Assembly (NCBI GenBank): GCA_963755025.1
Contig: CAVWIH010000007.1
Location: 1-41,676 of the forward strand
DNA length: 41,676 nt
Source of the DNA: an uncultured Actinomycetes bacterium
Lineage (GTDB): Bacteria > Actinomycetota > Thermoleophilia > UBA2241
Direction of reading: 5' to 3'
The translations under genes and the position numbers were made by a program. Below are positions 1-6,545 of this stretch, in pieces. Within the stretch, counting starts at the first letter, position 1. Each line of letters opens with the position of its first letter. Below the pieces are notes generated by a model that was not told the DNA's origin, did not search any database, and worked only from the letters and a program-made list of their open reading frames with translations.

Positions 1-1057
1 TCCACTCTCGCCAGCCCTTGCCGACACCTTCCGGGTGGAAGCACTTGCCGAGATACCGGCCATCGGGCGCCTGGCCCACGCCACACTCGTATGGGCGCTC
101 AGGGCCATGGAACGGACACGCGCGCACGTGATACCAGACGCTGCCGTTTGCGTCGGCCGGCTGCTCGCGGTAGTCGACGCGCGGCGGCCTCCAGAATCTC
201 AGCGAGCGGTCGGGCCAACTCCGGCGACTGTCACCTCTAGTCCTCCGCGAGTCGGCACGATCGCCGACGAGACTCTCGAGGAGTCCGAGCGGCACCGGCA
301 CGGACTCGGCCGGGCACGTTCAGCAAGACGCGAGCGGCGATGAGGCCGCTCCGCCGTCGGGTCGCCCTTTCTCTTGGTGGTCCCGATCAGGCAGGCTATA
401 CGTGATGCGTTGGCGACTGTGGTGTCGATTGTCGCCGCGGCCGTGTTGAACCCTGACGCGAGTGTCTCGAGCACCTTCTGAACGGTCGAGCGCGTCTCGG
501 CAGTGTTGGGCAACTCGATGGGGAAGAGGGCGTAGTAGCCGTTGCCCGATAGGCAGCTCTATGGGTGGCGGCCAGCCGAGACCAGCCAGGTAGCCAGTGA
601 CTGCGTTCAGCACTTTCTCGGCCTCGGCAAGTTCCGCCTCGGTGGCTGAGATGCCGGGACGGCCGGACCGAGTCGATGTCGAGGAACAGCCAGGTGCGTC
701 GTGCGATCTCGGCGTCTGCGGTCGTGGACTGCGCCGGGGCGACGATGCGGTTGTCGGCTCGCGCCAAGAGGTGGGGTCTGTGGCGTTGACAGTGATATAG
801 ACGTTGGCCTTACCCTCCCACGCGGCGGCGGCTTCGACGAGCTTCTCGGGTGTGTCGAAGTAGCCGGAGGCGGTGCGACCGAAGCGGTCGCACCTAAGGA
901 CGCGAACCTCGCGCACTTCGTCGGGACGCCATAGGGCCTGAACAAAGCGGAGGGAGTCTCGGGGAGTGGGGAGTAGTTGGTGCTCACTTGCCGGTTCGCC
1001 CCCAACGTCCGCTCGGGAGTACGAGCGTGCGACAGGCGGTGTAGTTCCGACTCGCAC
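1..1057 (-). CDS. Primase-like replication protein with C-terminal Zn-binding segment; frameshifted, runs off the window, start uncertain (987-1057)
   Basis: Pieces across frames join into one protein: TASGYFD...NVYITVN...ARADNR...TTADAEIARRTWLFLDIDSVRP...GISATEAE...SGNGYYALFPIELPN...IDTTVANASRIACLIGTTKRKGDPTAERPHRRSR, then WYHVRACPFH...GKCFHPEGVGKGWREW at the edge. DxD and SGNG motifs resemble AEP/RepB-type primases. Confidence 0.65.
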
Positions 1058-1062
1058 GGATG
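1..1062. mobile_element. Right end of an integrative element inserted in comM/yifB; extends beyond the left window edge
   Basis: ComM similarity starts abruptly at the CPCG motif (1061). Upstream is unrelated DNA with a phage/IME-type primase-like gene on the opposite strand. No integrase in the window. Confidence 0.8.
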
Positions 1063-1070
1063 TCCCTGCG
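1053..1070. other. Putative hybrid att site (element/comM junction)
   Basis: CGCACGGA-TG-TCCCTGCG is a 7/8 inverted repeat around a 2-bp core, exactly where ComM similarity begins. Confidence 0.65.
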
Positions 1071-1535
1071 GCTACCGGGGCGACTCGGCCACGCCTGCCG
1101 GTGCCCAGAGCATCGCCTCGCGCAGTACCGCCAGCGCCTCAGCGGACCGCTGCTCGACCGCATCGACCTGCACGTCGACGTGCCCCGCCTCCTGCCGCGC
1201 GACCGCCGCGGCTGCGTGGCCGGGGAGACGTCGGCGGTGGTGCGGGCGCGGGTCACCCGGGCCCGCGAACGCCAGCGCCGCCGCCTGGGCGGCGCCGGCC
1301 TCACCGCCAACGCCCATCTCACGGCGCGCGGCTTGCGCGAGCTCTGCACGCTCGAGCCGGGGCCATCCGCGCGCTCGACGACGCCTACGACCGGCTGCGC
1401 CTGAGCGCGCGCGCCTGCGACCGCGTGACCAAGGTCGCCCAGACCATCGCCGACCTCGAGGGCGCCGCCGCCATCGGCGAAGGCCACGTCGCCGAGGCGT
1501 TGTCGTACCGCGAGCAGGCCTGGAGACCGTCGTGA
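1061..1535 (+). pseudogene. comM: 3' part of ComM/YifB Mg-chelatase-like AAA+ ATPase, separated from its 5' part by the insertion; two indels
   Basis: CPCGYRGD / HACRCPEHRLAQYRQRLSGPLLDRIDLHVDVP / ETSAVVRARVTRARERQRRR / LSARACDRVTKVAQTIADLEGAAAIGEGHVAEALSYR; lies directly upstream of dprA. Confidence 0.92.
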
Positions 1536-2939
1536 GCGCGCCTCCCGCCACGCCGGAGCCACCGGCTGCGCAGCCCGGTGGGGAAGAGGCAGGCGGCGCG
1601 TCCGGCGCCGCTGCGGCCCGCGAGCTCTGCCTCTCGGCTGGCCGCCCAGTCCGCCGCCGACCGCGGCCTGGTCGGGCGCCTCGTCAGGGCGCACGGCAGC
1701 TTCGCTCAGGTCATGACGCTGCCGCGCTGGTCGCTGGCCCTCGCGGTGCGCAAGCAGGCCGACGCGACCGATGCCGCCGACGCCTCGTCGCCCGACCACG
1801 GCGACTCCGTAATTCTCGGCAGGAACAACCTGAGGGCGCCGAAGCCGTGGTCACCTGGGTCGACGCCGACTATCCGCCCGGCCTGCGCGAGCTGTTCGAC
1901 CCGCCGCCCGCCCTGTTCGTGCGCGGCCGGCACTGGGCGGCGATGCTGCGCGCCCTGCGCGAGCGCCCCACCGTGGCCATCGTGGGCGCCCGCCACCCGC
2001 CTACGGCCTCGAGATGGCCTGGCTGCTGGGTTCGGGGCTCGCCCGCGCTGGTGCTAACGTCGTGAGCGGCATGGCCCTGGGCATCGATGCCCAGGCCCAC
2101 GTCGGCGCACTCGACGGGCTCGGCCGCAGTCCGGCCGACGACCCGCCCTTCTGGCCCTCCGGCCGGCCCCTCGCCGACGCGCCGCCTCCCGGCCCGTCGT
2201 CCGCACGACGGCCGCCGATCCGCCTGTCGCCCTGCCGGTGGCGCTCGCCGGCGTGCTGGGCTCGGGCGCGCGGCTGAGCGTGCCGCGCACGAACAGCCGG
2301 CTGCGCCGACGTGGCGCGCTGCGGCGTGCTGCTGTCAGAGTACGGCTGGCTCCTGCCGCCGGCGCCCTGGCGGTTTCCCGCGCGCAACCGCCTGATCGCG
2401 GCCCTGGCCGACGCCGTCGTGATCGTCGAGGGCAGACACACGAGCGGCGCCCTGCACACCGCGGCCTTCGCCCTCGACCTGGGGCGCGACGTCCTGGCGG
2501 TACCCGGCGAAGCCGGCGGCCGCTGTCGGCCGGGCCACATCGCCTGCTGCGCGACGGCGCCCACCTGTGCGAGTCGCCCGACGACGTCCTCGCCCTTTTG
2601 CCGGGCTTCACGCCCGAGCCTGGGCCTCCCGGGCCGGCGGCCGGCGCCCGCTCGACGACGCCGGCGGCGCGTCAGCGGGTCCGACTCCGCCACCGGCGAC
2701 CTCTCCGGCGACCCCGACCTGAGCCTTGCCGGCGTCGCACGAGCAGCCCGCAGGGCCGTGTGCTGGCTGCGCTGCGGCGCGGCCAGCACACGGCCAACCA
2801 GCTCGAACGCAGCCTCGGGCTGGCCCCACGGCAGGTGGCCGCCGCGCTGGCCATGCTCGAGCTGGACGGTCTCCTCGACGTCCTGCCCGGCGGGCGCTAC
2901 CGCCTGCGCCGCAGGCCCCGCCCGGCGGCCCGCCCATGA
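1532..2939 (+). CDS. dprA: DNA-processing protein DprA, multiple frameshifts (sequencing errors or pseudogene)
   Basis: DADYPPGLRELFDPPPALFVRG, VAIVGAR, VVSGMALGIDAQAH, FPARNRLIAALADAVVIVEG...SGALHTA...GRDVLAVPG and a C-terminal winged helix (ALAMLELDG) are spread over several frames. GTG overlaps the comM stop. Confidence 0.9.
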
Positions 2940-3976
2940 CGGGGCAGGAGGCGTGGGGAGCCATGGCGAACTTGCCAAGCAGACAGACACGCCATCGTCG
3001 CGACCGCGCGGCGGCGGCGCGGCGCCCCACGAAGGAAGTACCGACGACACCCACGATGGCCACTCGTCCACAGCCTGCAGCAGGCCCCAGCGATCCGGTC
3101 GCTCAGTTCCTGCGCGGCCTCGAGGTGCGGGGCGCCTCGCCGGCGACGCGCCGTTCGTACGGCTCCGACCTCGCGCAGCTCACCGAATGGCTCGACACGC
3201 GCGGCCTGGCGCTCGAGGCGCTCGACCGCGGCGCGGTGCGCGCCTACGCCGCCGAACTCGGCGGGCGCGGCTACGCCCCGCGACGCTGGCTCGCAAGCTC
3301 TCGTCCATGCGCTCGTTCTGCCGCTTTCTCACCGCGCGCGGTGTGCGGCCGCCGACCCGCGCAGTATCTTCCCGGCCCGCGCCGGCGGCGGCGGTTGCCG
3401 CACGCCCTGCGGCCCGCCGAGGTCGACGCGGTGTGCGACGCGGTCGTCGGCGCCGACCCCTTCGCCCTGCGCGACCGGCTCATTTTCGAACTGCTCTACG
3501 GCTGCGGGTTGCGCAGCCAGGAGCTGGTCGACCTGAACCGCGCCGACGTCCACGCGCGCTACGGCGAGCTGCTGGTGCGCGGCAAGGGCGGCAAGATGCG
3601 CATGGTGCCGCTGGGCGACGAAGCCGCCGCGGCCCTCGAACGCTACCTCGCGTCCGGACGCGGCGAGCTCGAGCGGCGGCGCGGCGGCGCAGCCGCCGCG
3701 CCGCTCGACGCCCTCCTGCTCACGCGCGGCGGGCGCGCCCTGCAAACATCCGACGTGCGGCGCATCGTCGCCAAGTACGCCGCGGCGGCCGGGGTCACGG
3801 CGTCGCCACACATGTTCCGCCATGCCTACGCCACCCACATGCTCGAGCACGGCGCCGACCTGCGCGCCATCCAGGAGCTCCTCGGCCACAGCTCGGTCTC
3901 CACCACGCAGATCTACACACACGTCAGCGGCGCTCACCTCAAGGCCGTCCACCTGCGACATCACCCCCGGTCGTGA
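2936..3976 (+). CDS. xerC: XerC/XerD-family tyrosine recombinase (compensating frameshifts near 3280-3350; start may be 3056)
   Basis: LLYGCGLRSQE, VRGKGGKMRMVP, SPHMFRHAYATHMLEHGADLRAIQELLGHSSVSTTQIYTHV; usual position after dprA. Confidence 0.88.
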   Translation: MTGQEAWGAMANLPSRQTRHRRDRAAAARRPTKEVPTTPTMATRPQPAAGPSDPVAQFLRGLEVRGASPATRRSYGSDLAQLTEWLDTRGLALEALDRGAVRAYAAELGGRGYAPRRWLASSRPCARSAAFSPRAVCGRRPAQYLPGPRRRRRLPHALRPAEVDAVCDAVVGADPFALRDRLIFELLYGCGLRSQELVDLNRADVHARYGELLVRGKGGKMRMVPLGDEAAAALERYLASGRGELERRRGGAAAAPLDALLLTRGGRALQTSDVRRIVAKYAAAAGVTASPHMFRHAYATHMLEHGADLRAIQELLGHSSVSTTQIYTHVSGAHLKAVHLRHHPRS

Positions 3977-4110
3977 GCGGCGTGGGCGTGGGCGGCGAGC
4001 GAGGAGTTTTCCCTGCCGCGGCTCAGGCATATGGCCTTGAGCGCAGTGGTGGTAGCATGGTCATGGCGTCGCCGCCGGCGGCGCGGGCACTTGTGACGTG
4101 GTGACGTCGG

Positions 4111-4920
4111 TTGAGTAAGGTCGCGTCAATGGGTCGTCTCGACGAGAGCAGGATCAACGATCTCTGGCGCCGGTTCAAGAATGACGGCGACCAGCAGGCA
4201 CGCGACCGCCTGATCCTGGCCTACGCGCCGCTCGTCAAGTACGTCGCCGGTCGCATGGGCAGCGGGCTGCCCGCCCACATCGAAGAATCCGACCTCATCA
4301 GCTACGGCCTGCTCGGCCTGATCGGCGCGCTCGAACGCTTCGACCTGGGCCGCGAGATCAAGTTCGAGACCTACGCCATCTCGCGCATCAAGGGGTCGAT
4401 CATCGACGAGCTGCGCTCCCTCGACTGGGTGCCGCGCTCGGTGCGCAGCAAGGCGCGCGAGATCGAGCGCGTCTGCGCCCGCCTCGAGAACCGCCTGCAG
4501 CGCGCGCCGTCAGACGACGAGATCGCCGGCGAGCTCGGCGTCACGCTGCCCGAGTTCCACCACTCGCTCTCGCAGATCGCCAACACCTCGCTCGTCGCCT
4601 TAGACGAGCTGTGGGCGATCTCGGGCTCCGACGGCGACACCGCCTCGCTCATCGACACCATCGAAGACCCCAAGAGCCACGACCCCTCGCGCATGCTCGA
4701 CCTCTCCGAGATGAAGAGCCGCCTGGCGGCCGCCATCGACGCCCTGCCGCCGCGCGAGAAGATCGTGATCGCGCTCTACTACTACGAGAACCTGACCCTG
4801 CGCGAGATCGGCGAGGTCCTCGGCGTCACCGAATCGCGCGTCTCGCAGCTCCACACCAAGGCGATCCTGCGCCTCAAGGGCAGGCTGCGCGACGAGATCG
4901 AGCCCGCCGCCGTAGGGTAG
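4111..4920 (+). CDS. whiG: FliA/WhiG-family sigma-28 factor (ATG 4129 is an alternative start)
   Basis: [87 protein letters not shown]; actinobacterial dprA-whiG-rpsB context. Confidence 0.93.
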
Positions 4921-4984
4921 CCGTCGGCGCCGCGGCCGCCCGGCCCGCGCCTCACGTCGGCGTCACGCATGCCCTACGCCCCTT

Positions 4985-4995
4985 TGTGGTACCAT
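4985..4995 (+). promoter_or_regulatory. Extended -10 promoter element of rpsB-tsf
   Basis: TGTG-G-TACCAT just upstream of the structured rpsB leader. Confidence 0.55.
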
Positions 4996-5019
4996 GGAGC
5001 GCTAGTTTGTGTCCTGCCA

Positions 5020-5120
5020 ACCCCGACCCGACGGGTCCCGGGCGAGTGGCGGTGCCTCAGCTCATCCGAGGTTCCACTCGCTCTTTCCGTCGGCAGACAG
5101 CGCCACAGAAAACCGACCCC
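5020..5120 (+). ncRNA. rpsB 5' leader (t44/S2 autoregulatory leader-like)
   Basis: Nested stems CCGACGG(5028-34)/CCGTCGG(5087-93), GCGAGTGG(5042-49)/CCACTCGC(5074-81) and CCTC/GAGG, with the GGTGC element typical of S2 leaders. Confidence 0.65.
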
Positions 5121-5135
5121 TCCAAGGAGGCACCC

Positions 5136-6545
5136 GTGCCTACGGTCAGCATGAAGGACCTGCTGCAAAGCGGCGTCCACTTCGGCCATCAGACCCGCCG
5201 CTGGAACCCGAAGATGCGCAGCTACATCTTCACCGAGCGTGGCGGCATCTACATCATCGACCTCCAGAAGACCACGGTCCTGATCGACGAGGCCTACAAC
5301 TTCTTGCGCAACGTCGCCGCCCGCGGCGGCAGCGTGCTCTTCGTCGGCACCAAGAAGCAGTGCCAGGACTCCATCAAAGAAGAGGCCGAAGCGGCCGGGC
5401 AGCCCTACGTCGCCAGCCGCTGGCTCGGTGGTCTGCTGACCAACTACGTCACGCTGTCCAAGCGCATCAAGCGTCTGCACGAGCTCCGTCAGCTCGTCGC
5501 CGAGGGCTCCATCGACGTGCTGCCCACGCGCGACCAGATGAAGCTGCGCGGTGAGCTCGCCAAGCTCGAGACCAACCTCGGCGGCGTGGCCGGCATGGAG
5601 ACCCTGCCGAGCGCCGTCTTCGTCGTCGACCCCCGCAAAGAAGCCATCGTCGTCAAAGAGGCGCGCAAGCTCGGCATTCCGCTGGTCGCGCTCGTCGACA
5701 CCAACTGCGACCCCGACGAGGTCGACTACGTCATCCCGGGCAACGACGACGCCATCCGTTCCTGCTCCGTGATCGTCAAGGCCATGGCCCGCGCCGTCGC
5801 CGACGGCCGCGCGCAGGTCACCGCCGCCGAGTTCAAGGCCGCCGAAGAGCGCGCCGCTGCCGCCAAGGTGACCGCACAGGCCGAAGCCGCGCTGGCTAAG
5901 GCCGCCGCCGCCGTGGCCGCCGAATCCGGCACCGAAGCCGCCGTGGCCGACGCCGAAGCCGCCAAGGCCAAGGCCGACGCCGCCGCCAGCAGGGCCGCAA
6001 GCGACGCCGCCGCCCTCGAGCGGGCGGCCGCCAAGTTGAACCCGGTCAAGCCCGAGCCCGCCCCGGTGAAGCCCGCTGCGGTCAAGGCCGAGGCCGAACC
6101 CGCCAAGCCGGCCGCCGCTGCGGTCAAGGCCGAAGCGGCGCCGGTCAAGCCCGAAGCCGCTCGCGCCAAGGCGGAGGCCGCTCCGGCCAAGCCGGCGCCT
6201 GCCAAACCCAGCACCGCCGCGGCCGCCGAAGCGGCCAGGTCAAAGGCCGCCGCCAAGGCCGCCGTGGCCGAGGCCCTCGCCGCCCAAAAGCGGGCCGCCG
6301 AAGCCGTCGAGAACGCCATCGCCGCCGAAGCCGCCGCCGACAAGGCCTTAGACGCGGCCGCCGAGACCGAGGCGCAAGCCGAGGTCGCGGCCGTCGACGC
6401 CATCGTCGCCGAAGAGATCGCCGACGAGGTCAAAAAGACACGCAAGCCCGCCGTGCGCAAGTCGGCCAAGGCCGACAGCGACGCGCCGGCCGCGCCCGCG
6501 CACGACGCCGGCGCGAGCGACAGCAAAGACGAGAGTGAGGCGTAG
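5136..6545 (+). CDS. rpsB: 30S ribosomal protein S2 with long Ala/Lys/Pro/Glu-rich C-terminal extension (469 aa)
   Basis: AAGGAGG RBS then GTG; [58 protein letters not shown]. Confidence 0.97.

Follow-up and report, generated by a model that had tools for sequence, protein, structure and literature searches.

A putative mobile element integrated into comM next to a large serine recombinase gene in an uncultured soil actinobacterium of the class Thermoleophilia

Introduction

Serine integrases such as those of phiC31, Bxb1, A118 and SPbeta are composed of three domains and use an attP site of about 50 bp in which imperfect inverted arms surround a 2-nt crossover. The system presented here resembles them in its three-domain integrase, its inverted attP arms and its proposed 2-nt crossover, all of these being read from the sequence. 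It has been reported that homologues of Mg-chelatase and ATP-dependent protease are the targets of 12.4% of predicted site-specific large serine recombinases (LSRs), and that the target genes of LSRs are enriched in DNA competence genes (Durrant 2022, PMC10083194). Among the known landing sites of such integrases comM is the commonest, insertion of a serine-integrase element into it has already been published, and the case described below is an ordinary new example. Like the elements in ComM/YifB genes described in that survey, it has the LSR at the element end and the site inside the Mg_chelatase domain, and attL and attR together allow an exact reconstruction of the target gene (PMC10083194). 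It differs from the elements as they are described there in its host, an uncultured member of the Thermoleophilia of soil and peat, and in its integrase, which is about 32% identical to the nearest phage integrases.

Two other groups of elements strike the same gene family. Prophages of the sr1WO group of phage WO integrate into the magnesium chelatase gene of Wolbachia (PMC9203015), and the likeness extends to the serine recombinase and to the gene halves flanking the element. As portrayed in that source, phage WO is a complete tailed prophage of an alphaproteobacterial endosymbiont, whereas no structural genes were seen in the approximately 9 kb available here. In Acinetobacter baumannii comM is interrupted by AbaR/AbGRI islands and other elements, and here too the Mg-chelatase domain is the part that is interrupted (PMC11472951). 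A benefit proposed for AbaR in the same source is that the element is less often removed by recombination of incoming DNA. The AbaR/AbGRI islands are described there as Tn7-like transposons with TniABC-type genes, in contrast to serine-integrase elements.

The junction and the divided comM gene

The window, that is the whole stretch of 41,676 nucleotides which was analysed, is an entire contig (C7) of genome G000, a draft bin (39 contigs, 5% contamination) that belongs to an uncultured soil actinobacterium of the Thermoleophilia. The following features were assigned in it.

1..1060, minus strand: right end of the element, containing a primase/helicase gene of which the contig end leaves the first ~1 kb
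1036..1060, no strand: P arm of attR, a half-site contributed by the element, with 20/25 positions complementary to the element arm of attL on contig C9 of the same genome
1061..1062, no strand: TG, proposed as the crossover dinucleotide; these two bases open the first Cys codon of NPCPCG
1063..1087, no strand: B' arm of attR, the host-derived half-site, continuous with the intact comM of relatives
1061..1535, plus strand: comM 3' fragment, about the last 157 codons, assigned by Pfam matches and by tblastn with residues 359-510 of the G002 ComM
1532..2939, plus strand: dprA (context), whose GTG start overlaps the comM stop, frameshifted in the assembly; its end is estimated from the G004 alignment and from ORF 2238..2939

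The rest of the assembled element lies on contig C9.

C9:1-5207: left part of the element, with the integrase, an XRE-type HTH protein, a 447-aa protein without a family and a HAD hydrolase
C9:3632-5234, in two frames, reading into the junction: LSR gene with Resolvase, Recombinase and Zn_ribbon_recom domains

A preliminary description of this DNA had proposed that comM starts abruptly in the window directly upstream of dprA, and that its 5' half and a large serine recombinase should be found on the other side of an inserted element; all of these expectations were borne out. Pfam Mg_chelatase is matched in the window from 1090 onwards, with profile positions 169-202 at 1090-1191, followed by Mg_chelatase_C at 1222-1511; the 3' part of comM therefore begins abruptly at 1061, and the codons of the junction are read in the frame of ORF 977..2065 (by translation). 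The overlap of the dprA start with the comM stop places the two genes next to each other. In a profile search of the genome, positions 1-169 of PF01078 were found at C9:5176-5685 on the minus strand, where the comM 5' half ends in ...AAMNPC(PC) and then diverges to RSQLHRRTDTG and a stop, and the integrase gene lies directly beside it.

The split was observed to be exact. G002 is a genome of the same genus with a 95% identical ComM; residues 1-355 of this protein align with C9:6264-5200 and residues 359-510 with window 1078-1532, while the three residues between 355 and 359 coincide with a 1-nt deletion in the window. When the host sides are joined at TG, the reading is in frame, ...NPCPCGY..., with no residue lost or gained, and it matches the intact comM of G002. 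The 3' fragment of the window is broken by 1-nt deletions near 1086 and at 1357-1362, seen against both G002 and the sister species G004, in which the corresponding fragment is a single open frame (L033:5173-5733). The dprA orthologue of G004 (L033:3848-5200) carries the DNA_processg_A and DprA_WH domains and is 87-90% identical in alignment with dprA of the window.

As predicted from the sequence, ComM with the element integrated would stop after residue ~355 and 11 element-encoded residues, and the truncated protein would have lost the last part of the AAA+ module and all of the Mg_chelatase_C domain. ComM is presumably inactive while the element is in place, and, judging by orthology, the element would thereby knock out natural transformation. 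Because the GTG start of dprA overlaps the comM stop, dprA expression may be affected by the insertion as well. A ComEC homologue is present in G000; it does not establish natural competence of the lineage, since ComEC is found also in non-competent control genomes.

Reconstructed attachment sites

The preliminary description had taken a short dyad at the junction, CGCACGGA-TG-TCCCTGCG, as the mark of a hybrid att site with a TG crossover. The dyad is present at 1053-1070 and its two 8-mers are complementary at 7/8 positions, yet dyads of this 8-2-8 form with at least 7/8 matches occur at 75 of the 41,658 centres in the window; taken alone it is thus no evidence, and it belongs to a hybrid P/B' site. 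The hybrid site itself and its crossover are supported in another way, by the reconstruction of attB and attP which had been suggested: attB restores comM in frame, and the element sides joined to each other give an attP whose 25-nt arms are complementary at 20/25 positions around TG. The same 25-nt arm score is 5 for attB, 8 for attL and 10 for attR. A dyad of at least 20/25 has no centre in the window and 99 among 3,366,596 centres genome-wide. The attP rebuilt from the G004 copy is likewise a 20/25 dyad, and TG is kept in the attB of all relatives that were read.

In G000 five nucleotides, TGTCC, are common to attL (on C9) and attR (in the window), which would look like a 5-bp target duplication as well. 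In a related island of genome G176, described below, attL and attR have only TGT in common, therefore the crossover is narrowed to TG or GT. TG was named because the centre of the attP dyad falls there, rather than because of the common 5-mer; a crossover at TG is supported, and from the dyad we infer the cut site itself.

Both the attP form and an empty attB were sought in the G000 assembly, and only the two halves, on C9 and C7, were found; the attP form was also absent from the three informative metagenome contigs. Among the matches listed for the Logan contigs of four runs there was no loose end at 1060/1061. Runs X1-X4 consist of Logan contigs, which cannot reveal rare attB or attP forms, so excision is neither supported nor excluded by them. 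Rfam and tRNA scans of C9:1-5300 gave nothing, and the insertion site is therefore not of the tRNA type.

The serine integrase

In G000 the integrase is read in two frames, while that of G004 is intact (533 aa) and has the same three domains, with a match to the phrog_95 integrase family at E 7.7e-90. PF00239 covers positions 2-145 of the 145 in the profile in both proteins, and PF07508 and PF13408 are present in the second frame of G000 as well as in the intact G004 protein. The two integrases are 76% identical over residues 216-533 and 67% over residues 1-225. Compared with G004 and with the 89%-identical metagenome contig L040, the G000 gene has one extra G in a run of G at C9 ~4279-4282, which is likely an assembly error like those found in the window.

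Solved structures are matched by the catalytic domain alone, namely the catalytic domains of resolvase and of TP901-1 integrase. The closest integrases in GenBank phage records are about 32% identical (Paenibacillus phages Harrison and Paisley), and recombinases of Wolbachia phage WO are among the tblastn matches with 25-26% identity. No relatives were obtained when IMG/VR was searched with the integrase and with the primase, and a scan of genome contigs with the integrase returned the G004 contig itself as the sole match.

The integrase ORF runs across attL and extends into host DNA for 8 codons before its stop. In a G004 circle formed by excision the ORF would have 550 aa, compared with 533 in the integrated state, and would overlap the beginning of the primase/helicase ORF, which is on the same strand, by ending 19 nt within it.

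Gene content of the element

The primase/helicase gene starts with TTG at 1005 and reads towards position 1. Window 1..1060 is 90% identical to contigs C148 of G004 and C62 of G003, another genome of the genus, where the gene is intact and encodes 819 aa (G004) and 815 aa (G003). In the G004 protein the domains D5_N, DUF5906 and Pox_D5 are recognised, together with similarity to phage primase PHROGs (E~1e-116). In G003 the gene is followed by an SSB gene and then by a ParB-like N-terminus. The order of features in the direction of comM can be given as follows.

Left: comM 5' half (C9), attL, integrase (3' end into attL), XRE-type HTH, 447-aa protein, HAD hydrolase
Right: unassembled gap, ParB-like protein, SSB, D5-type primase/helicase, attR (1036-1087), comM 3' part, dprA

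The element has at least ~9 kb, its middle being absent from the bin. An integrase, an XRE HTH protein and a D5_N primase/helicase are seen in the assembled ends, and no virion genes (terminase, portal, capsid, tail) were encountered in the available sequence of ~9 kb (G000 C9:1-5207, window 1-1060 and G003 C62). By its gene content the element looks like the early or replication part of a temperate phage, a satellite or an integrative plasmid. Phage satellites and small integrative replicons of the P4 or PICI kind measure about 10-15 kb and combine an integrase, a repressor-type HTH protein and a primase/helicase, a complete virion module being absent from them. An extension through G003 and G004 with C9:1-3600 as the query yielded just a 69%-identical HAD paralogue and dispersed short repeats.

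The HAD-family hydrolase gene (C9:31-687, L007) occupies the inner end of the left part as assembled. It looks more like cargo than like DNA of the host, because the nearest G004 copy is the 69%-identical chromosomal paralogue on another contig. The left part of the element also holds two short dispersed repeats, at C9:1316-1456 and C9:1509-1673 (L007). Copies of the first, ~140 nt long, occur at 76-87% in G000 (twice on C11 and once on C21), in G004 (at least 7 contigs) and in G003 (2 contigs), and copies of the second, of 163 nt, at 96% in G000:C22:17045-17207 and at 88% in G003:C97. Neither repeat matches an Rfam family or a tRNA.

Recurrence at the same site

The 5' part of comM is present in all 11 other genomes of the genus, and in nine of them the gene is intact through the site (G001, G002, G005, G006, G007, G008, G009, G010 and G011). 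The sister species G004 has the same attL on contig C172 and the same attR on contig C148, the latter with ~88-90% nucleotide identity to window 1-1599. In G003 three contigs meet at the site: C29 terminates exactly at ...AACCCGTGTCC, C204 starts 25 nt before the C29 end and continues as intact comM, and C62 ends in attR joined to the comM sequence of G003 itself, so that both the empty and the occupied site are present in that sample. The breaks of the three contigs at the att core (C29 end, L036; C204 start, L035; C62 end, L034) are the assembly-graph signature of a polymorphic insertion. Contig C62 holds a masked run of N at about 330-430.

The base that follows TGTCC in G003 is G in the attR contig and C in the empty-site contig. 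If the crossover is at TG, two strains that occur together must differ here by a synonymous base, and because of this difference G003 is read as two strains and is no proof of excision. Owing to the same difference a second TG, four bases downstream, was considered as the crossover and was rejected, since there is no dyad around it and C29 ends right after TGTCC, as expected for a branch there.

Searches with the integrase at E<=1e-20 detected it in 2 of the 89 family genomes, and at E<=1e-40 in 4 of 401 genomes sampled from the class, G000 included. Relatives occur on six metagenome contigs, of which the three that reach the integrase 3' end (L039, L040 and L044) all abut comM at the same point; L039 is probably not independent, as it is 100% identical to the G004 integrase. 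G176, from another family of the same class, has an integrase 48% identical to that of G004 over residues 10-376 and carries at the same comM codon an island of 62,364 bp (C6:2564910-2627274; L054, L055, L056, L050 and L051), whose attP arms differ and whose attL and attR share 3 nt. In the present genome and likewise in G004, L040, L044 and G176, the insertion is located inside a ComM-family gene (ChlI, Mg_chelatase, Mg_chelatase_C) and an LSR adjoins one junction. The conserved stretch of comM fits a shared landing pad for such elements. The cargo of the G176 island is mixed and includes a terminase-like GpA ATPase, two hybrid sensor kinases, an HD-domain response regulator, an ECF-type sigma factor, a type ISP-like methyltransferase and a 1394-aa protein without a family.

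Frameshifts near the contig end

Dense 1-nt indels are seen in window 1-4100 in the coding sequence of the primase, the comM 3' part, dprA and xerC. Compared with G004, window 1-1100 has seven 1-nt insertions (181, 221, 236, 312, 327, 560 and 656) and three 1-nt deletions (771, 959 and 1086), and the primase/helicase is scattered over several frames. Indels of one nucleotide against both G002 and G004 occur also in dprA (2304) and xerC (3276, 3347 and 3356). Logan short-read contigs of runs X1-X3 have one base fewer at 181, 229, 236, 312, 328, 456, 560 and 657. One X1 record matches window 249-537 with 0 substitutions and 4 gaps, and a second X1 record of 432 nt bridges the junction over window 915-1344 with 2 substitutions and 2 gaps. 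The runs containing parts of the window sequence are labelled soil and peat. As the short-read contigs do not have the extra bases, the indels of the window are regarded as consensus errors, therefore the primase, the comM 3' part, dprA and xerC are not to be called pseudogenes.

Origin of the insertion and alternative explanations

Window 1-1060 very probably represents the right-hand end of a mobile element that was integrated into comM at TG by its own LSR. The event would be a conservative recombination of attP with attB, carried out by the element-encoded LSR at the first Cys codon of NPCPCG. According to established LSR biology, integrase dimers would bind attP and attB, both strands would be cut at the central TG, and rotation and religation would then give attL and attR, which would be inert without a directionality factor; excision in the presence of such a factor would restore comM because the integration is exact. 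That this particular LSR made the insertion is what we infer; a further recombinase or transposase could lie in the unassembled middle. One alternative is that the assembly joined unrelated DNA at a short repeat and the junction is a chimera; a chimeric mis-assembly was already considered in the preliminary description. The two junctions are close to the ends of their contigs (at 1.06 kb and 5.2 kb) in a 39-contig draft bin and the region has many consensus errors; against this, the same junctions recur in the independent assemblies of G004 (C148 and C172) and G003 (C62) and in metagenome contigs L040 and L044, and a Logan contig spans 915-1344, so that a chimera has a negligible probability. 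It is highly unlikely that the element is a Tn7/AbaR-type or other DDE transposon with terminal inverted repeats and a 5-bp duplication, TGTCC. Five nucleotides are indeed common to attL and attR, the attP dyad formally equals terminal inverted repeats of ~25 bp, and comM is described as a target of Tn7-like elements (PMC11472951). The ORFs scanned from the assembled ends, however, hold no transposase domain (TnsA/B/C and TniA/B/C included), in every copy the junction coincides with the end of an LSR gene, the 3-nt common stretch of G176 is unlike a fixed 5-bp duplication, and the dyad is centred on TG and not beside the 5-mer.

Two further readings concern the fate of the element. The G000 copy could be a fixed, decaying remnant in which the integrase is a pseudogene and the fragments of the element and of comM are degenerating, immobile. 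The two frames of the integrase and the frameshifts of the primase, comM 3' part, dprA and xerC in the window are what such decay would leave, but the short-read contigs of X1-X3 are free of the extra bases, host genes (dprA and xerC) show the same kind of indels, the genes are intact in G004 and G003, and the single indel of the integrase lies in a run of G; decay is accordingly considered improbable. Active lysogeny has been described for comK in Listeria, and a similar switch may be imagined here, in which conditional excision restores comM, together with comM-dprA co-expression, and is followed by re-integration. In its favour the comM 3' fragment is still one open frame in G004, the integration is exact and hence the gene restorable by excision, and in G003 the empty site and the occupied site are each represented by contigs. 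On the other hand these G003 contigs differ next to the core, which indicates two strains rather than excision, no attP form appears in the assembly or in the three informative metagenome contigs, and no candidate for a directionality factor was found, which makes a switch of this kind unlikely.

An extension of the preferred reading, integration by the element's own LSR, concerns the order of the genes. In the integrated form the element has the integrase at one end and the primase at the other, and 56 nt separate the primase start from host DNA. It is conceivable, if doubtful, that integration splits an integrase-primase unit and that the element is accordingly a small satellite or plasmid capable of self-replication, with a replication module that is expressed after excision only, and that the same event rebuilds comM and the overlap-coupled dprA. 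If true, this would be a two-way switch between the recombination capacity of the host and the replication of the element.

Significance

The insertion in comM opens no new question. It adds a Thermoleophilia lineage of soil and peat to the hosts whose comM is struck by serine-integrase elements, and the natural attP/attB pair obtained from it, marked by a clear 20/25 dyad, is a candidate recombination tool for high-GC DNA. The same TG of the NPCPCG codons serves two integrases that share 48% identity and whose attP arms differ. There is also a practical lesson, namely that the frameshifts at this contig end are assembly errors and not signs of pseudogenes.

Further downstream in the window, the frame of rpsB (ribosomal protein S2; 4611-6545, plus strand) has a C-terminal extension of ~300 residues of low complexity, rich in Ala, Lys and Glu, which differs in length from G002 and G004 by multiples of 3 only.
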